From Flavobacteriales bacterium (GTDB lineage: Bacteria > Bacteroidota > Bacteroidia > Flavobacteriales > Flavobacteriaceae): a stretch of 64,000 nucleotides of DNA. The translations under genes and the position numbers were made by a program. Every line of letters begins with the position of its first letter. The stretch's first letter is position 1. The DNA lies in assembly GCA_031408335.1 (NCBI GenBank), contig JANNWH010000014.1, positions 8,784-72,783 of the forward strand, read 5' to 3'. The notes below the pieces were generated by a model. It saw nothing but the letters and a program-made list of their open reading frames with translations. It was not told the DNA's origin and made no database searches. This document shows positions 7,484 to 54,940 of this stretch, in pieces.

Positions 7484-8869
7484 ATGCCTTTACAATTAAG
7501 TTTAAAAAAAATATTTCTTTTAACGGAATATTTGTTATCAATGTTTGCATTTGCGCAAATTCCGCCAAACTATTACATCACAGCAACTGGAACTGGTTAT
7601 CCATTAAAAACCCAATTGCACAATAAAATAAAAGTGCAAACTGTTCTTAGTTATGATGCTTTGTGGGTTACTTATGCAACTTCTGACCGCGACAATCAAT
7701 ATGATTTTGACAATACTGTTATCGATATGTATTCGGAAAATCCAACAGGTTCAGATCCTGTAACTTTTATATACAGTACAAATCAATGTGGAAACTACAC
7801 TATTCAAGGTGATTGTTATAATAGAGAGCATATTATTCCGCAATCGGTATTTAATTCGGCATCACCGATGGTTTCTGATGCACATTTTGTTACTCCAACT
7901 GATGGTTTTGTAAACGGAATGCGTTCTAATAATCCCCACGGAAATGTAGCAACCGCGAGTTGGACATCTTTAAACGGAAGCAAAAGCGGAACCAGCGCTG
8001 TTCCTGATTATACAGGAACTGTTTTTGAACCTTTAAACGAATTCAAAGGCGATATTGCTCGAATGTATTTTTATTTTGCAACTCGATACGAAAATACAGT
8101 AGCAAACTATACCTTTGATATGTTTGATGATTCCAGTGATAAAGTTTTTACAACTTCTTTTTTAAACATGCTTATTAGTTGGCACAATCAAGATCCAGTA
8201 AGCACAAGAGAAATTGTAAGAAATAATGCTATTTATGCTCGACAAAATAATAGAAATCCGTTTATAGATCATCCTGAATATGTAGCTATGATTTGGAATC
8301 CAACTCCAGATATAATTGCGCCAACAAATCCAACAAATTTAGCAGCATCAAATATATCATTTGCAAGCTTAACACTAAACTGGACAGCGTCTACTGATAA
8401 TATTGGTGTAACCGCTTATGATGTGTATATGAATGGATTATTAAGAACCACAGTAACAACAACTACAGCTTTAATAACTGGTTTAAATAGTAATTCCAAC
8501 TATTCATTTTATGTTAAAGCAAAAGATCTTGCTGGAAACGTTTCTTCAAATAGTAATACAATAAGTCCTTTAACTTTACCTTTTATAGATAGTTCTCCGC
8601 CAACAATTCCATCGAGTATTACTAACTCTGCATTAACGTCGACAAGTTTTACAATAAATTGGTCAAATTCTTCCGATAATATTGGGGTTACTGGATATGA
8701 AGTTTATTTAAACGGATTATTAACTACAACTGTCTCAACCACTAGTGCTACAATTACTGGATTAACTCCAATTACAACTTATTCTATAACTTTAAAAGCA
8801 AAAGATGCTGCTGGAAATAGTTCGATTACTAGTCCAATTGTATACCTTACTACTTGCTATTGCCAATAA
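7484..8869 (+). CDS. Secreted endonuclease I-family nuclease with two FN3 domains, no T9SS CTD
   Basis: YNREHIIPQS, KGDIARMYFYFATRY, QNNRNPFIDHPE; two FN3 repeats (W.ASTDNIGVT.Y.VY); ends LTTCYCQ. Confidence 0.85.
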   Translation: MPLQLSLKKIFLLTEYLLSMFAFAQIPPNYYITATGTGYPLKTQLHNKIKVQTVLSYDALWVTYATSDRDNQYDFDNTVIDMYSENPTGSDPVTFIYSTNQCGNYTIQGDCYNREHIIPQSVFNSASPMVSDAHFVTPTDGFVNGMRSNNPHGNVATASWTSLNGSKSGTSAVPDYTGTVFEPLNEFKGDIARMYFYFATRYENTVANYTFDMFDDSSDKVFTTSFLNMLISWHNQDPVSTREIVRNNAIYARQNNRNPFIDHPEYVAMIWNPTPDIIAPTNPTNLAASNISFASLTLNWTASTDNIGVTAYDVYMNGLLRTTVTTTTALITGLNSNSNYSFYVKAKDLAGNVSSNSNTISPLTLPFIDSSPPTIPSSITNSALTSTSFTINWSNSSDNIGVTGYEVYLNGLLTTTVSTTSATITGLTPITTYSITLKAKDAAGNSSITSPIVYLTTCYCQ

Positions 8870-18946: not shown

Positions 18947-19378
18947 ATGAAAGATAAAACCATTGATTATATACTTCGTGCTACTTGGCAGGCAGTTGCT
19001 AGAATGTACAACGAAGAAGCTTCAAAGTTTGATGGTTCAATGGCAATCGGTTTTGCTTTGCTTAGTATTGATAAAGAAGATGGAACTCCATCAACATTTA
19101 TAAGTAACCGAATGGGAATGGAAGCAACAAGCTTAACAAGAACATTAAAAACATTAGAAGAAAAAGGATTAATATTTAGAATGAAAAATCCTGAAGATGG
19201 CCGTGGTGTTTTAATTTATCTTACCGATTTGGGTAAAGAAAAAAGAGAATTATCAAAATCAACTGTTCTTAAATTTAATGAAGTAATTAAAAAAAACATA
19301 TCAGAAGAAAAACTGAATCATTTTATGGAAGTATCTGATATTATAAATGATTTGATTGCAGAAAAAAAAATATTTTAA
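18947..19378 (+). CDS. MarR family transcriptional regulator
   Basis: ATG at 18947 (MKDKTID); TSLTRTLKTLEEKGLI...DGRGVLIYLT wHTH. Confidence 0.9.
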   Translation: MKDKTIDYILRATWQAVARMYNEEASKFDGSMAIGFALLSIDKEDGTPSTFISNRMGMEATSLTRTLKTLEEKGLIFRMKNPEDGRGVLIYLTDLGKEKRELSKSTVLKFNEVIKKNISEEKLNHFMEVSDIINDLIAEKKIF

Positions 19379-19394
19379 AAATAGATCAAATAAT

Positions 19395-21785
19395 ATGAAA
19401 CGAATAATTAAAAAAGTGGCAGTAGTAGGATCCGGAATAATGGGATCTGGTATTGCTTGTCATTTTGCTAACATCGGTTTGGAAGTATTACTACTAGACA
19501 TCGTTCCCAATGCATTAACTGAAACTGAAGAAAAGAAAGGATTGAGTCTTGAATGTAAAACAGTTCGCAATCGTATTGTAAACGAACATCTAGCAAATGC
19601 CTTAAAATCAAACCCTTCTCCTATTTACAATCAGAAGTTTGCCAACAGAATTACAACTGGTAATACTACTGATGATATGTCAAAAATAGCCAATTATGAT
19701 TGGATTATAGAAGTAGTTGTAGAAAGATTGGATATCAAAAAATTAGTATTTGAACAAATCGACAAATTCCGTAAACCTGGAACATTAATAACTTCAAACA
19801 CTTCCGGTATTCCAATTCATTTTATGAGTGAAGGACGAAGTGATGATTTTCAAGCACATTTCTGCGGTACGCATTTCTTTAATCCTGCCCGTTATTTAAA
19901 ATTGTTTGAAATTATTCCAGGTCCGAAAACTTCATCAATGGTATTGGATTTTCTATTTGATTATGGATCTAAATATTTAGGAAAAACTTCTGTAATAGCT
20001 AACGACACTCCGGCATTCATCGGAAATCGTATCGGAATTTTCGGAATCCAAAGTTTATTTCACTTGGTAAATGAAATGGGATTAACCATTGAAGAAGTGG
20101 ATAAATTAACCGGACCCGTAATTGGTCGACCTAAATCGGCTACTTTTAGAACTGTTGACGTTGTTGGTTTAGATACGTTAGTGCACGTAGCCAACGGAAT
20201 TTACGAAAACTGTCCCAACGACGAAGCACATGATTTATTCAAACTGCCCGATTTCATTAATAAAATGATGGAAAACAAATGGTTGGGGAGCAAAACCGGT
20301 CAAGGTTTCTACAAAAAAGAAGGAAAGGATATTTTATCATTAGACTTAAATACTTTAGAATATAGAGCTGCTAAAAAAGCTTCCTTCGCTACTTTAGAAT
20401 TAACAAAAACTATCGACAAACCTATTGATCGTTTTAAAGTTTTGGTAAAAGGAAAAGACAAAGCAGGTGATTTTTACAGAAAAAATTTCGCAGCTATGTT
20501 TGCCTATTGTTCTAATCGAGTTCCTGAAATTACCGACGAATTCTACAAAATCGACGATGCTATGAAAGCAGGTTTCGGTTGGGAAAATGGACCATTTGAA
20601 ATTTGGGATGCTATTGGTGTTGAAAAAGGAATCACATTAATGCAAGCCGAAGGTTATGAGCCATCTACATGGGTTACAGATATGTTAGGTTCTGGTAACT
20701 CTAGTTTTTATTCAATTAAAGAAGGTGCTACTTATTTTTATAATATCCCAACAAAATCTCAAAACAAAATTCCAGGACAAGATAGTTTTATCATCTTAAA
20801 CAATATCCGAGAAAGCAAAAAAGTATGGAGCAATAGCGGAGCTGTTATTACTGATATTGGCGATGGTATTTTGAATTTAGAATTCCAAAGTAAAATGAAT
20901 ACCATTGGTGGCGACGTTTTAACTGCTATCAATAAAGGAATTGATTTAGCCGAAACTTCTTATAATGGTTTAGTAATTGCAAATCAAGCAGCCAATTTTA
21001 CTGTTGGCGCCAATATCGGAATGATTTTTATGATGGCTGTCGAACAAGAATACGAAGAGTTAAATATGGCTATTAAGTATTTCCAAGATACTATGATGCG
21101 GGTGCGCTACTCGTCTACTCCTGTTATTGTGGCGCCACACGGAATGACATTAGGTGGCGGTTGCGAAATGACCATGCACGCAGACAGAGTGGTTGCTGCT
21201 GCCGAAAGTTATATTGGTTTGGTTGAATTTGGAGTTGGTGTAATTCCGGGTGGTGGTGGATCTAAAGAAATGGCGTTACGTGCATCTGATTTATTCCATA
21301 AAAATGATGTTGAACTGAATGTCTTGCAAGAATATTTCTTAGCTGTTGCAATGGCAAAAGTGTCTACTTCAGCTTATGAAGCATTTGATTTAGGAATTTT
21401 ACAAAAAGGAAAAGATATTGTCGTTGTAAATAAAGACCGACAAATTGCAGTTGCTAAACAAATAGCATTACAAATGTCTGAACAAGGCTATACACAACCT
21501 ATTCAACGCAAAGATGTAAAAGTATTAGGAAAACAAGCACTCGGAATGTTTTTAGTTGGAACCAATCAAATGGTGGCTGGAAAATACATCTCCGAACACG
21601 ATTTAAAAATTGCCAATAAACTAGCTTATGTTATGGCTGGTGGCGATTTATCAGAACCAACTTTAGTTAGTGAACAATATTTATTGGATATTGAAAGAGA
21701 AGCATTTTTATCCCTTTGTACTGAAAGAAAAACATTGGAAAGAATTCAGTTTATGTTAACTAAAGGAAAACCGTTAAGAAATTAA
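19395..21785 (+). CDS. fadN: 3-hydroxyacyl-CoA dehydrogenase / enoyl-CoA hydratase
   Basis: VVGSGIMGSG, SNTSGIPI, HFFNPARY; C-terminal crotonase domain TLGGGCE; start MKRIIKK. Confidence 0.93.
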   Translation: MKRIIKKVAVVGSGIMGSGIACHFANIGLEVLLLDIVPNALTETEEKKGLSLECKTVRNRIVNEHLANALKSNPSPIYNQKFANRITTGNTTDDMSKIANYDWIIEVVVERLDIKKLVFEQIDKFRKPGTLITSNTSGIPIHFMSEGRSDDFQAHFCGTHFFNPARYLKLFEIIPGPKTSSMVLDFLFDYGSKYLGKTSVIANDTPAFIGNRIGIFGIQSLFHLVNEMGLTIEEVDKLTGPVIGRPKSATFRTVDVVGLDTLVHVANGIYENCPNDEAHDLFKLPDFINKMMENKWLGSKTGQGFYKKEGKDILSLDLNTLEYRAAKKASFATLELTKTIDKPIDRFKVLVKGKDKAGDFYRKNFAAMFAYCSNRVPEITDEFYKIDDAMKAGFGWENGPFEIWDAIGVEKGITLMQAEGYEPSTWVTDMLGSGNSSFYSIKEGATYFYNIPTKSQNKIPGQDSFIILNNIRESKKVWSNSGAVITDIGDGILNLEFQSKMNTIGGDVLTAINKGIDLAETSYNGLVIANQAANFTVGANIGMIFMMAVEQEYEELNMAIKYFQDTMMRVRYSSTPVIVAPHGMTLGGGCEMTMHADRVVAAAESYIGLVEFGVGVIPGGGGSKEMALRASDLFHKNDVELNVLQEYFLAVAMAKVSTSAYEAFDLGILQKGKDIVVVNKDRQIAVAKQIALQMSEQGYTQPIQRKDVKVLGKQALGMFLVGTNQMVAGKYISEHDLKIANKLAYVMAGGDLSEPTLVSEQYLLDIEREAFLSLCTERKTLERIQFMLTKGKPLRN

Positions 21786-22413
21786 ACTTCGTAGAGGTGA
21801 CCTGTTACTAGAAAATGATTTACAATCATTTTTAAAATATGTTAAATTCAAAAAGCTCCGTAGGTGCGACCTGTTTATATGGCAAATACGTATTCACAAA
21901 TTTATATTCAAATTGTTTTTGCAGTTAAAGGAAGACAAAACCTTATTTCTAAAGAAAACCGTGAAGAGTTGCATAAATTTATTACAGGTATCGTTACCAA
22001 TAGAGAACAAAAATTACTAGCTATTTTCGCAATGCCAGATCATATCCATATTTTGGTGGGAATAAAACCAAACATTTTAATTTCAGATTTAGTAAGAGAC
22101 ATAAAAGCAGTTTCGTCAAAATTTATAAACGACAATAAATGGATAAACGGAAAATTCAATTGGCAAGAAGGTTTTGGAGTATTTTCTTATTCTAAAAGCA
22201 ATTTAGATAATGTTGTTAAATACATTCTAAACCAAGAAGAACACCATAAGAAAAAAACATTTAAAGATGAATATTTAGATTTTTTAGAAAAATTTGAAAT
22301 TGAATATAATGAAAAATATGTTTTTGAATGGATTGAATAATTAACAGGTCGCTCCTACGGAGCTTCAAAAAAAGAAATAAAATCACAACAAATAACAGTT
22401 TACCTCTACGAGG
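21786..22413. mobile_element. IS200/RAYT-like element bounded by nested inverted GTAG hairpin repeats
   Basis: AAGCTCCGTAGGTGCGACCTGTT (21853-21875) vs inverted copy 22343-22365 (22/23); outer pair 21787-21807 vs 22393-22413 (18/21). Confidence 0.8.
21879..22340 (+). CDS. tnpA: Y1 HUH transposase (IS200/IS605 TnpA or RAYT-like)
   Basis: MANTYSQ start, MPDHIHIL (HUH), WQEGFGVFS, VVKYILNQEEHH (catalytic Tyr). Confidence 0.92.
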   Translation: MANTYSQIYIQIVFAVKGRQNLISKENREELHKFITGIVTNREQKLLAIFAMPDHIHILVGIKPNILISDLVRDIKAVSSKFINDNKWINGKFNWQEGFGVFSYSKSNLDNVVKYILNQEEHHKKKTFKDEYLDFLEKFEIEYNEKYVFEWIE

Positions 22414-22454
22414 CAATATAAAAAAAATAGATTTTTATTAATACAAAATATAGT

Positions 22455-23642
22455 ATGAAAAACACAACCGCATACATAGTTGCAGGTTTCAGAACTGCCG
22501 TTGGAAAAGCACCAAAAGGAGTTTTCCGTTTCAAACGTCCTGATGAATTAGCTGCAGAAACAATCGAACATTTGATGGCTCAATTTCCAGATTTCGACAA
22601 AAAAAGAATTGATGACGTAATGGTTGGAAATGCCATGCCAGAAGCCGAACAAGGTTTAAATGTAGGTCGGTTGATTTCCCTAATGGGATTAAAAGTAACC
22701 GATGTTCCTGGTGTAACCGTTAACAGATATTGCGCTTCCGGATTAGAAACTATCGGAATGGCAACTGCTAAAATTCAAAGCGGAATGGCCGACTGTATCA
22801 TTGCAGGTGGAGCAGAAAGCATGAGTTTCATTCCAATGGGAGGTTACAAACCAACTCCAGATTACGCAGTGGCGAAAGCAGGAAACGAGGATTATTATTG
22901 GGGAATGGGGCTTACAGCAGAAGCAGTTGCCAAGCAATTCAATATCTCTCGTGAAGATCAAGATGAATTTGCTTTTAACTCTCATCAAAAAGCATTAAAA
23001 GCGCAAGCAGAAGGTAAATTCGATAAACAAATAGTTCCGATTACTGTCGAGCAAACGTTCATCAATGAAAATGGAAAGAAAGAAACCAAATCGTATACGG
23101 TAGCCAAAGATGAAGGTCCTAGAGCCGATACCAATACAATTGCTTTAGCCAAACTAAAACCTGTTTTTGCAGCTGATGGTTCTGTAACTGCAGGAAATTC
23201 TTCTCAAATGAGTGACGGTGCTGCTTTTGTTTTAATTATGGGCGAAGAATTGGTTAAAGAATTAAACATCACTCCTATTGCACGACTAGTAAATTTTGCC
23301 TCTGCTGGTGTTGAACCTAGAATTATGGGAATTGGTCCAGTGAAAGCGATTCCGAAAGCATTAAAACAAGCAGGTTTGAATTTAAATGATATTGGATTAA
23401 TTGAATTAAACGAAGCTTTTGCATCGCAAGCATTAGCAGTTACTCGTGAACTAAACTTAAATCCTGAAATTATAAATGTTAATGGTGGTGCAATTGCTTT
23501 AGGCCATCCTTTAGGTTGTACCGGAGCAAAATTATCGGTGCAATTATTTGATGAAATGAAACGCCGTGGCGATAAATATGGAATTGTTTCTATGTGTGTG
23601 GGAACAGGGCAAGGAAGTGCTGGGATTTATGAATTATTGTAA
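22455..23642 (+). CDS. fadA: Acetyl-CoA C-acyltransferase (thiolase)
   Basis: VNRYCASG, NEAFA, GHPLGCTGA, CVGTGQG. Confidence 0.95.
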   Translation: MKNTTAYIVAGFRTAVGKAPKGVFRFKRPDELAAETIEHLMAQFPDFDKKRIDDVMVGNAMPEAEQGLNVGRLISLMGLKVTDVPGVTVNRYCASGLETIGMATAKIQSGMADCIIAGGAESMSFIPMGGYKPTPDYAVAKAGNEDYYWGMGLTAEAVAKQFNISREDQDEFAFNSHQKALKAQAEGKFDKQIVPITVEQTFINENGKKETKSYTVAKDEGPRADTNTIALAKLKPVFAADGSVTAGNSSQMSDGAAFVLIMGEELVKELNITPIARLVNFASAGVEPRIMGIGPVKAIPKALKQAGLNLNDIGLIELNEAFASQALAVTRELNLNPEIINVNGGAIALGHPLGCTGAKLSVQLFDEMKRRGDKYGIVSMCVGTGQGSAGIYELL

Positions 23643-23663
23643 AAAAGAAGAAAGAAGCGAGAG

Positions 23664-23690
23664 TCAAGAATCAAGAATCAAGATTAAGAT
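23664..23690 (+). repeat. TCAAGAA heptamer array upstream of four-helix gene 1
   Basis: TCAAGAA TCAAGAA TCAAGAT TAAGAT. Confidence 0.75.
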
Positions 23691-23717
23691 GAAAAATATA
23701 AACCAAAAAAATAAAAT

Positions 23718-24082
23718 ATGCGCCACAACTTTAAAAACCTTAAAATTTGGATATTATCGAAGGAAATAGCTTCAGATATTCATCAAATAGGATTAACATT
23801 TCCAAAGAATGAGATTTATGGATTGGTAAATCAAATGAATAGATGTGCTGTTTCAATGCCATCAAATATTGCAGAGGGTTCAAATAGAAATAAAAAACAT
23901 TTTCAATATTATCTGAATGTTAGTTTAGGTTCGTCATTTGAATTACAAACACAATTGTTGATTGCAAATAAAATTCTTATTTACCAATAGAAAAAACTAT
24001 AGAAATAGAAAATAAAATAATTGAATTTCAAAAGATGACATCAGGATTTATTGTCAAGTTAGATTCAGATCTTTCTTCTTGA
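23718..24082 (+). pseudogene. Four-helix-bundle protein (23S rRNA IVP/TIGR02436-like), apparently frameshifted
   Basis: HNFKNLKIW, FPKNEIYGLVNQMNRCAVSMPSNIAEG, GSSFELQTQL; stop at 23990, but adding one A near 23968-23972 gives NKNSYLPIEKTIEIENKIIEFQKM...SS* ending 24082 (121 aa). Confidence 0.8.
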
Positions 24083-24103
24083 TTCTTGCATCTTTTATCT
24101 AAA
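24076..24103 (-). repeat. Inverted heptamer copies downstream of four-helix gene 1
   Basis: TTCTTGA TTCTTGC ATCTTTT ATCTAAA; 24076-24088 is the exact reverse complement of 23665-23677. Confidence 0.7.
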
Positions 24104-24113
24104 ACCAAAAAAA

Positions 24114-25904
24114 ATGAGCGATATTACAAGAGGAGGACAATTCCTAGTTAAAGAAACCAAATGTGAAGACATCTTTACACCAGAAGATTTCTCAGAAGAA
24201 CAATTTATGATGCGTGATTCTGTAAAAGAATTTGCGGATAAAGAATTATGGGCACACAAAGATAAATTCGAGAAAAAGGATTATGCTTACACCGAATCTA
24301 CTATGCGCAAAGCAGGAGAAATGGGGTTTTTAGGCGTAGCTGTTCCAGAAGCTTATGGCGGAATGGGAATGGGATTTGTAGATACTTGTTTAGTATGTGA
24401 TTATATTTCAGGTGCAACAGGTTCGTTTTCAACCGCTTTTGGTGCTCATACCGGAATTGGAACAATGCCAATAACACTATACGGAAACGAAGAACAAAAG
24501 CAAAAATATGTACCAAAATTAGCTTCTGGCGAATGGTTTGGTGCGTATTGCTTAACAGAACCAGGAGCAGGAAGTGATGCTAATTCAGGAAAAACAAAAG
24601 CTGTTTTATCTGAAGATGGAACGCATTATAAAATCACTGGACAAAAAATGTGGATTTCAAACGCTGGATTTTGTTCTGTATTCATCGTTTTTGCTCGTAT
24701 TGGTGATGATAAAAATATTACTGGTTTCATTATTGAAAATGATTCGAATAACGGAATTACGATGAATGAAGAAGAACATAAATTAGGCATTCGTGCTTCT
24801 TCAACGCGTCAAGTTTTCTTTGCGGATACTAAAGTTCCAGTTGAAAATATGTTGTCTGAAAGAGGAAACGGATTTAAAATTGCAATGAATTCTTTAAATG
24901 TAGGACGAATTAAATTGGCTGCTGCTTGTTTGGATGCGCAACGTAGAGTAACTTCAAATGCAGTTAATTATGCTAATGAAAGAATACAATTTGATGTTGC
25001 TATCGCTACTTTTGGTGCTATTCGTTATAAATTAGCCGAAATGGCAACCAGTTGTTATGCTGGAGAAAGTGCTACTTACAGAGCTGCAAAAGATATTGAA
25101 AACAGAATTAAAATGCGTGAAGCAGATGGAAATTCGCACCAAGAAGCAGAATTGAAAGGTGTTGAAGAATTTGCAATCGAATGTTCTATCCTAAAAGTTG
25201 CCGTTTCAGAAGATGTCCAAAATTGTGCCGATGAAGGAATTCAAATTTATGGCGGAATGGGATTTTCTGAAGATACACCAATGGAAAGTGCTTGGCGTGA
25301 TGCTCGTATTGCTAGAATTTACGAAGGTACGAACGAAATAAATCGAATGTTATCGGTTGGAATGCTAATTAAAAAAGCGTTTAAAGGTCATGTTGATTTA
25401 TTAGGACCAGCTTCTAAAGTTCAAGAAGAATTAATGGGAATTCCTTCATTCGATACGCCTGATTACTCTGAATTATTTGCTGAAGAAAAAGAACTTATCG
25501 GAAAATTAAAAAAAGCATTTTTAATGGTTGCTGGTGGTGCAGTACAAAAATACGGTCCCGAATTGGACGGACACCAACAATTACTTATGGCTGCAGCCGA
25601 TATTTTAATTGAAATTTATATGGCCGAAAGCACCTTGTTACGTACAGAAAAAATGGCTAAAAAACAAGGCGAAGATAAAGTGAAAGAACAAATAGCTATG
25701 GCTAAGTTATACTTATACAAAGCAGTAGATGTGGTTACTCAAAAAGGAAAAGAAAGTATCATCTCTTTTGCCGAAGGCGATGAACAACGTATGATGCTTA
25801 TGGGTTTACGCCGTTTTACCAAATACACCAATATGCCAAACATTGTGGCATTAAGAGAAACTATTACCACCAAGTTAGTGGCGGAAAATAGCTATTGTTT
25901 TTAG
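24114..25904 (+). CDS. Acyl-CoA dehydrogenase
   Basis: YCLTEPGAGSDA, GQKMWISN, IQIYGGMGF, RIYEGTNEI. Confidence 0.95.
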   Translation: MSDITRGGQFLVKETKCEDIFTPEDFSEEQFMMRDSVKEFADKELWAHKDKFEKKDYAYTESTMRKAGEMGFLGVAVPEAYGGMGMGFVDTCLVCDYISGATGSFSTAFGAHTGIGTMPITLYGNEEQKQKYVPKLASGEWFGAYCLTEPGAGSDANSGKTKAVLSEDGTHYKITGQKMWISNAGFCSVFIVFARIGDDKNITGFIIENDSNNGITMNEEEHKLGIRASSTRQVFFADTKVPVENMLSERGNGFKIAMNSLNVGRIKLAAACLDAQRRVTSNAVNYANERIQFDVAIATFGAIRYKLAEMATSCYAGESATYRAAKDIENRIKMREADGNSHQEAELKGVEEFAIECSILKVAVSEDVQNCADEGIQIYGGMGFSEDTPMESAWRDARIARIYEGTNEINRMLSVGMLIKKAFKGHVDLLGPASKVQEELMGIPSFDTPDYSELFAEEKELIGKLKKAFLMVAGGAVQKYGPELDGHQQLLMAAADILIEIYMAESTLLRTEKMAKKQGEDKVKEQIAMAKLYLYKAVDVVTQKGKESIISFAEGDEQRMMLMGLRRFTKYTNMPNIVALRETITTKLVAENSYCF

Positions 25905-54422: not shown

Positions 54423-54800
54423 ATGACATTTCAAGACTTATTAGCCTATCAAAAATCATTTGCCTTAGCAATGAAAATATATAACATATCAAAATTATTT
54501 CCAAAAGAAGAAACATATTCTTTAACTGATCAAATTAGACGTTCTTCAAGGAGTGTTTCTGCAAATATCGCAGAAGCATACAGAAAAAGAGATTATCCAA
54601 AACATTTTCACAGTAAACTAACAGATGCCGATGCAGAAAATTCAGAAACACAAGTATGGCTTGAATTCTCATACAATTGTGAATATATAACTCAAGTCAT
54701 TTTCTATGAACTAATCCAAGATTCTAATGAAGTCGGAAAACTCATAAATTATATGATACAAAATCCTCAAAAATTTGGAGTAAATTCAAATAATTCGTAA
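54423..54800 (+). CDS. Four-helix-bundle protein (23S rRNA IVP/TIGR02436-like)
   Basis: FQDLLAYQKS, FPKEETYSLTDQIRRSSRSVSANIAEA, ENSETQVWLEF, EVGKLINYMIQNP.KF. Confidence 0.92.
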   Translation: MTFQDLLAYQKSFALAMKIYNISKLFPKEETYSLTDQIRRSSRSVSANIAEAYRKRDYPKHFHSKLTDADAENSETQVWLEFSYNCEYITQVIFYELIQDSNEVGKLINYMIQNPQKFGVNSNNS

Positions 54801-54818: not shown

Positions 54819-54940
54819 ACTGAACACTGAACACTGAACACTGAACACTGAACACTGAACACTGAACACTGAACACTGAACACTGAACACTGAACACTGA
54901 ACACTGAACACTGAACACTGAACACTGAACACTGAACACT
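54819..54940. repeat. Perfect tandem repeat (ACTGAAC)x17 + ACT
   Basis: Counted directly; ends 4 nt before the ATG at 54945. Confidence 0.97.

Follow-up and report, generated by a model that had tools for sequence, protein, structure and literature searches.

A four-helix-bundle gene framed by complementary repeat arms in the fadA-acd spacer of Flavobacterium

What is a small gene doing within an operon for beta-oxidation, when it is enclosed by short tandem repeats on one side and by their reverse complement on the other? The question is raised by a stretch of 64,000 nucleotides (positions 8,784 to 72,783 of contig JANNWH010000014.1 of a Flavobacteriales bacterium, assembly GCA_031408335.1), termed here the window, to which all coordinates given without a contig prefix refer. 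In this window a cassette of about 460 nt, consisting of a gene of the PF05635 family placed between two complementary short-tandem-repeat arms, fills the spacer between fadA and acd, in the sense of the operon. The first-pass annotation had seen there an interruption of the fadA-acd pair in the sense orientation, and this is what is found, with genes for a thiolase and an acyl-CoA dehydrogenase flanking the inserted gene on the same strand.

The cassette and its arms

The features of the locus are the following:

19356-21785: fadB, further upstream of fadA
22455-23642, + strand: fadA, acetyl-CoA acyltransferase (thiolase), the upstream host gene (Thiolase_N 215.5 bits, Thiolase_C 162.6 bits)
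23645-23686, + strand: 5' arm, purine-rich AAGAAGAAAGAAGCGAGAG followed by the heptamers TCAAGAA/TCAAGAA/TCAAGAT (23664-23684)
23718-24081, + strand: four-helix-bundle gene (PF05635/TIGR02436), disrupted
24061-24101, + strand: 3' arm, the pyrimidine-rich complement, which includes TTCTTGATTCTTG (24076-24088)
24102-24113, + strand: A-rich leader AAACCAAAAAAA, from the 3' arm to the acd start codon
24114-25904, + strand: acd, acyl-CoA dehydrogenase, the downstream host gene (Acyl-CoA_dh_N/M/1/C domains)

The 5' arm begins 3 nt past the fadA stop codon and the gene 75 nt past it; the 3' arm overlaps the last codons of the gene together with the restored stop codon, and 32 nt separate the gene end from acd, everything lying on the + strand. 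Within 23400-24400 no terminator was predicted, no U-run follows the stem at the 3' arm, and sigma-70-like promoters do not exceed the chance level, with a consensus that does not fit Bacteroidota. Searching 21700-24300 with Rfam returned only two chance matches below threshold and no match to rRNA. The neighbouring fadB-fadA spacer (21786-22415) holds an IS200-like Y1 transposase gene (21864-22340, sense; Y1_Tnp 91.2 bits, and 35.5 bits with REP_Tyr_transpos, below its cut-off), framed by two nested inverted REP-like pairs, CTTCGTAGAGGTGACCTGTTA and GCTCCGTAGGTGCGACCTGTT on the left and their complements on the right, so that both internal spacers of the operon contain small genes framed by hairpins.

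On the left, positions 23664-23684 read TCAAGAA TCAAGAA TCAAGAT (period 7 scored at 18 of 21 positions); on the right, positions 24076-24088 read TTCTTGATTCTTG, preceded by TCTTTCTTC. The claim of a perfect 13-bp inverted match between the two sides was borne out, with CAAGAATCAAGAA at 23665-23677 against 24076-24088, a length of match (13 nt or more) reached in 0.07% of 3000 random intervals of the same geometry drawn from this genome. It is also correct that the restored stop codon, TGA at 24079-24081, falls inside the right repeat. The idea of heptamer arrays on both sides needs trimming, for the left side has its three units while the right one has about 1.9; with fewer than two units there, the word 'array' overstates the case. 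The match in fact extends into the purine-rich stretch upstream, joining 23645-23686 to 24061-24101 in 33 pairs (28 Watson-Crick and 5 G-U), with a duplex energy of -33.5 kcal/mol, where shuffled arms give -10.9 +/- 2.9 (z = -7.9). Folding of the transcript had been suggested as a check, and the predicted minimum-free-energy fold of 23630-24125 is closed by this long-range arm stem. The arm score of the cassette is 33, a value attained by 0.3% of random intervals. A control with the 3' arm reversed still gave -20.5 kcal/mol, and the pairing of arms of this kind, called type A below, is in large part that of a purine tract with a pyrimidine tract. For this cassette the duplex is stronger in the sense (-41.7 kcal/mol) than in the antisense transcript (-31.8 kcal/mol), a trend that does not extend across the family.

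What of the gene itself? Its frame-joined translation, on which profile matches were scored, reaches 100.6 bits with PF05635 (cut-off 33.8), covering profile positions 1-105 of 106, and 91.1 bits with TIGR02436 (cut-off 24); by these matches it belongs to the '23S rRNA intervening sequence protein' or S23p family. The closest solved structure by sequence similarity is that of XCC0516 (2GSC; E = 1.6e-13), a homopentameric toroid (PMC4990558). The family expectation of an intact ORF of about 115-125 aa fails for this copy: the frame opened by ATG 23718 ends at a premature TAG (23988-23990), and one base on, the other frame codes for the conserved C-terminal helix before ending at TGA 24079-24081. 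Comparison with orthologues, which read ...ANQN-YL... across the break, places the loss of one base (-1 frameshift) in an A4 run at 23970-23973. The gene is then a pseudogene, unless the frameshift is a sequencing error, which it could be because it sits in a homopolymer.

Cassettes elsewhere in the genome and in the genus

Nine copies of PF05635 were found in the whole genome (27 contigs, 2.88 Mb), and all nine have short tandem repeats upstream with their reverse complement downstream. The repeat unit differs from one cassette to the next, with GTGTTCA, GAATATA or GTTGTAA as examples of period 7, and GTTGCTGA and TTAGCGAA of period 8, but the two arms of any one cassette agree in their period, which is 7 for five copies and 8 for the other four. 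Inverted 7-mer flanks had been expected around the other four-helix genes. All eight others do carry inverted flanks, four of period 7 and four of period 8, and what has to be given up is the constancy of the period, not the presence of the arms. The arm scores of the nine range from 28 to 59, seven of them reaching 33, and four of the nine genes are disrupted: the fadA-acd copy by its frameshift, two by an in-frame TAA, and one by a stop and a frameshift together.

A second cassette lies in the window. Its PF05635 gene (54423-54800) is intact, a GC palindrome (cccgaagcttcggg) breaks up the GTTCAGT units of its left arm, and its right array runs through 17 perfect ACTGAAC units (54819-54940) to end 4 nt before the next start codon. 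A weak tblastn match to a type-A protein at C12:124177-124437 (E = 0.003, 32% identity over 88 aa), around which no repeat arrays lie, may correspond to a divergent family member missed by the Pfam search.

The pattern extends to the genus of this organism, Flavobacterium. All of the 41 Flavobacterium genomes sampled carry PF05635, in 1-12 copies each and roughly 240 altogether. In a survey of 29 loci, one per genome, inverted arms score at least 26 in 28 and at least 33 in 21; among controls, a score of 33 is attained by 0.3% of random intervals and by 3.7% of small ORFs. Periods in this sample are mostly 7, often 8 and now and then 9-10. When the nine copies of this genome are pooled with these 29, every one of the 38 cassettes lies in sense between co-directional genes, at 21 distinct junctions. 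An arm-gene-arm package is the rule for this gene family in the genus.

How long has it been at fadA-acd? A back-translated pattern built from an alignment of five sequences of the subfamily returned 80 close relatives, and in 72 of them, in records named Flavobacterium, the gene is flanked by both fadA and acd. The type-A cassette also occurs just upstream of fadB (L064, L072, L091) and, judging the flanking translations by eye, between the genes of the biotin carboxyl carrier (accB) and biotin carboxylase (accC) in L117. Distances between cassette proteins track those between flanks (r = 0.55, Mantel p = 0.001), and over the first 112 codons 1330 pairs have a median dN/dS of 0.10 and a mean dS of 0.95. 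Because cassette and flank distances go together and dN/dS is low, the type-A cassette at fadA-acd is an old resident, inherited mostly vertically, with its protein under purifying selection, and selection of that strength says that the protein has a function. Two records fall outside the expected taxonomy: fadA-cassette-acd is present at 68% protein identity in one titled Sphingobacterium wenxiniae (L115), and again in a contig binned as Bifidobacterium breve (L098), almost certainly a mis-binned Flavobacterium contig.

Seen across 29 congeners, the junction is far from uniform. Thirteen, this genome included, have type A at fadA-acd, one of these copies being truncated at its 5' end and at least two disrupted besides the present one; two have a type B cassette (AGAATAT-type arms), two a type C (AATTTTA-type arms), seven have unrelated palindromic elements, and one (G017) shows a hairpin of 114 nt, left by deletion of the ORF, the arms of which can be aligned with those of type B. 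In the remaining four the spacer measures 27-83 nt and contains no cassette; this is the empty site in relatives that the first-pass annotation had predicted. On a tree of FadA and Acd for these 29 species at least 14 changes of state are required, and strongly supported sister pairs oppose a cassette to an empty site; the site turns over, cassettes being gained, lost and swapped between species. Mobility is visible on the evolutionary scale only. As for the spacers of L027, L029, L028, L030, L031, L035 and L036, they hold palindromic elements of two unrelated kinds, one with GGGGG...CCCCC arms and the other with the 24-nt inverted repeat TGTCATTTCGACGAAGGAGAAATC, and the fadA-acd junction acts quite generally as a sink for elements that form hairpins. 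Between fadB and fadA, in the spacer taken up by the Y1 transposase gene in the window, L131 (G064) and L137 (G010) have four-helix-bundle cassettes of other subfamilies. Counting those upstream of fadB and at fadA-acd, cassettes have settled, across the genus, in each of the three junctions of the beta-oxidation operon.

Repeats of this kind are also abundant away from any intact cassette. Tandem arrays of period 7 number 91 in this genome, those of period 8 only 20 and those of period 9 only 7 (C5:182311-182372, C21:23529-23588 and C27:16625-16668 are examples); the period-7 arrays lie mostly between genes, and many of them directly follow a stop codon or stop a few bases short of a start codon. 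Among them, 22 share GTGTTCA/TGAACAC, by far the commonest unit, which is that of the intact cassettes C14:63206 and C20:1326. Inverted heptamer pairs enclosing no gene number about 20. One array pair proves to be a truncated tenth cassette (C5:182191-182372): next to a degenerate left arm it retains the last 33 codons of a four-helix-bundle gene of the C20 type (C5:182191-182289; 45% identity, E = 0.003), with a 9-unit CTGAACA array on the other side. Because this pair still encloses the remnant of a gene, at least part of the excess of heptamers can be put down to decayed cassettes. Candidates for other cargo between inverted arrays, at C15:66273, C15:108327 and C4:1687, were rejected, since they consist of ordinary genes or of a second RAYT-like gene.

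What the arms and the protein may do

Do arms belong to the site or to the gene? Paralogues at least 72% identical in protein have common arm sequences even at different junctions (C14:63206 and C20:1326 in this genome; L143/L144, L146 and L147 elsewhere), and because they do, arm-gene-arm is to be taken as the unit that duplicates or moves. Type A, likewise, has purine-rich AAGARNC arms at each of the three junctions where it occurs. Below about 60% protein identity the arms are unrelated, and under about 70% the similarity of proteins does not predict that of arms (Spearman 0.03). After a duplication or a move, arms diverge much faster than the protein, and a 'code' relating protein to arm was discarded, the two being uncorrelated save in recent duplicates. 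As a case in point, four type-A loci (L055, L056, L058 and L059) code for identical proteins from ORFs that differ at 0.3-4% of nucleotides. Between L055 and L056 the difference is 2.7% in the ORF and 13% in a 5' array of equal length; in L059 this array has grown to 118 nt as double units of 14-15 nt, and the 3' arm is unchanged. The 5' array of these loci is locally a hot spot for the conversion and expansion of repeat units.

Selection acting on the sense transcript should leave, among transition mismatches in the arms, more G·U than A·C oppositions. No such excess was found in any of three data sets, where G·U:A·C stands at 14:8 in this genome, 83:92 in the type-A orthologues and 33:65 in the survey of the genus. 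This leaves selection for RNA pairing undemonstrated, and compensatory RNA evolution of the arms was dropped as an explanation. Nor did the 72 type-A orthologues yield covariation evidence for a selected RNA helix, a type-A 5' arm pairing only slightly better with its own 3' arm than with foreign ones (-26.9 versus -23.9 kcal/mol; median rank 32.5 of 72). The arms look like inverted copies made at the level of DNA, in the course of being homogenised or of decaying, with which a role in RNA is still compatible.

The reading that we favour, lending it somewhat more belief than doubt, is that of a resident, now decaying cassette of the intervening-sequence type, co-transcribed with its hosts, whose arm stem is cut by RNase III. 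By analogy with known elements, the cassette would be transcribed within the fadB-fadA-acd message and its arms would fold around the ORF into a stem of about 33 pairs; RNase III, the gene of which is present in this genome (C17:70735-71100), would cut this stem, as it does in the homologous 23S rRNA elements that carry a gene in a stem, so that the cassette RNA is set free and the upstream and downstream cistrons come apart. Complementarity of the arms would be kept, or would have been born, at the DNA level and not through compensatory selection on RNA. Decay would proceed from an intact gene to a pseudogene and then to a gene-less hairpin, the present genome being one step along this route, with the frame lost and the arms persisting. 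We infer that co-transcription followed by processing of the arm stem by RNase III is the best candidate for the mechanism.

More tentatively, and with distinctly less conviction, a new reading may be proposed for the family as a whole. PF05635 cassettes might form a minimal class of elements, as yet undescribed, that colonises the junctions of co-transcribed genes, with the helices of rRNA as one such place. Movement of arm-gene-arm would be rare and would use neither transposase nor reverse transcriptase nor target duplication; the protein would be the element's own factor, recognising the arms with one subunit per unit of 7 or 8 nt and promoting insertion, retention or RNA processing. If true, this would explain how a protein without a host function keeps a dN/dS of about 0.1 over the age of the genus.

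An explanation that we consider unlikely makes of the cassette a self- or trans-mobilised DNA element, the arms being DNA hairpins or terminal inverted repeats on which the four-helix-bundle protein or a host enzyme acts, and the RNA stem being incidental. It would account for the entry of three cassette types at one junction and of type A at three or more, for arms that travel with their gene, for empty sites in sister species and for gene-less derivatives that resemble MITE-like remnants, and the lack of a wobble excess suits complementarity at the DNA level. Ralph and McClelland, as cited in PMC4990558, proposed that the ORF of intervening sequences encodes a component of mobility. Yet the cassette has no transposase, integrase or reverse transcriptase, and its protein family has no known catalytic activity; comparing filled with empty sites, and paralogous cassettes with one another, reveals no target-site duplication; arm sequences differ between cassettes, unlike ends that a transposase recognises; and inheritance that is mostly vertical, with dS near 1, implies that movement is rare. 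A uniform sense orientation (38 of 38) would demand an additional assumption. No insertion polymorphism between near-identical strains and no mobility enzyme were found, and retro-mobility through a resident reverse transcriptase was set aside, the whole genome having no RVT_1 match.

Doubtful to a greater degree is the proposal that the arms are what matters, as a REP-type module of RNA stability or decoupling internal to the operon, setting the stability or translation of fadBA relative to acd with the gene as a passenger. Arms do outlast the decay of genes, as the disrupted copies of this genome and the gene-less hairpins illustrate; the genome holds about 20 such hairpins besides its 91 period-7 arrays, most of them between genes and many next to a start or stop codon, and the unrelated palindromes at the same junction in other species look as if any hairpin would serve. 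But purifying selection of the strength seen here is ill-suited to a mere passenger, four species cope with an empty spacer of 27-83 nt, and the helix finds no support in covariation.

We give little credence to an autoregulatory operator, in which an oligomer of the four-helix-bundle protein would bind its own arms, as RNA or as DNA, with one subunit per repeat, and so control its own expression or that of its neighbours. In its favour, the related protein Avd is a binder of nucleic acid as well as of a reverse transcriptase. A unit proper to each cassette, a period of 7 or 8 common to both arms, the pentameric ring of the nearest solved relative (PMC4990558) and the prevalence of GTGTTCA, the unit of two intact cassettes, in 22 of the 91 arrays would fit as well. 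It is difficult to reconcile such an operator with proteins that do not predict their arms below about 70% identity, with orthologues that have identical proteins and very different 5' arrays (L055, L056 and L059), or with a repeat number that ranges from 2 to about 17. Finally, an artefact of chance, in which slippage-prone purine and pyrimidine tracts happen to lie beside an ordinary small gene, could invoke the low complexity of type-A arms, any 5' one of which pairs with any 3' one, and the stability left in the reversed-arm control, but it is effectively refuted by the genus-wide pattern, where 37 of the 38 cassettes are inverted alike, against 0.3-4% of controls, with varied and often non-purine units (GTGTTCA, GTTGTAA, TTAGTGA, GTTGTCG and others), and we hold it to be hardly credible.

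Relation to known elements

A full-text search on the family names returned no paper describing this class of cassettes, and several known systems come near to it in one respect or another. The accessory protein Avd of diversity-generating retroelements (DGR) shares the four-helix-bundle fold and is distantly related, the bAvd and NF033474 profiles scoring 21.8 and 22.5 bits on the gene, both below cut-off (80 for NF033474); unlike a DGR, the cassette lies in a genome without reverse transcriptase and has no pair of template and variable repeats. Insertion sequences and MITEs differ from it in that the arm units vary among the nine copies and no duplication is seen at the borders. The REP/RAYT systems, or REPINs, are reminiscent of it, with a small intergenic gene framed by inverted palindromic repeats and gene-less hairpins dispersed in the genome, but the framed gene here is of the PF05635 family and not a Y1 (HUH) transposase, and its arms are tandem repeats that vary per cassette instead of one conserved REP. 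The RAYT-like Y1 gene of the same operon (21864-22340) has REP-like flanks of its own, unrelated to the arms of the cassette.

Intergenic heptamer repeats have a literature of their own, with TAACTGA arrays (PMC4679880), GGGAATC pairs in Xanthomonas (PMC4692102) and heptanucleotide elements in Geobacter (PMC2700814). As in those cases, the period-7 arrays are over-represented between co-directional genes, vary in copy number, often abut start codons and frequently form convergent inverted pairs. The three papers make no mention of 'intervening sequence', 'S23' or 'four helix' and link their arrays to no gene, whereas the arrays of Flavobacterium frame a specific protein family, and some of the gene-less pairs are deletion derivatives. 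Inasmuch as some arrays are decayed cassettes, this gives a concrete origin to part of the unexplained excess of heptamers in bacterial intergenic regions.

Closest of all in design are the ORF-bearing intervening sequences (IVS) of 23S rRNA, known from Coxiella and Leptospira and also from Xanthomonas and Brucella. In both, a protein of the PF05635/S23p family is encoded in the loop between long complementary termini, which here are predicted to form the stem around the ORF (33 pairs, z = -7.9); in both, the ORF tends to decay and is outlived by the RNA element, and insertion is in the sense of a highly transcribed unit. The IVS of Coxiella burnetii has AGAAGA and three tandem heptamers (3 x GACAGAT, in variable number) upstream of its S23p ORF, and a 28-bp stem, cut by RNase III, encloses this decaying ORF (PMC4990558); the counterpart at fadA-acd is AAGAAGAAAGAAG and 3 x TCAAGAA. 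There are differences too. The host here is the mRNA spacer between a thiolase and an acyl-CoA dehydrogenase gene, not helix 25 or 45 of 23S rRNA; excision by RNase III is established there and would operate here by analogy; repeat units in Flavobacterium change from cassette to cassette; and, while the ORF of Coxiella is believed to remain silent, the fadA-acd protein is under strong purifying selection across the genus. The locus thereby bears on the function of the S23p family and on the origin of rRNA intervening sequences, two questions that date from the early 1990s. They can be approached in a genus that has genetic tools, the same fadA-acd cassette being present in F. johnsoniae and its relatives, and that offers natural controls: sites left empty, cassettes exchanged for another type, copies with a frameshift and hairpins without a gene. 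The gene-in-a-stem design of these rRNA insertions is now seen in an ordinary metabolic operon.
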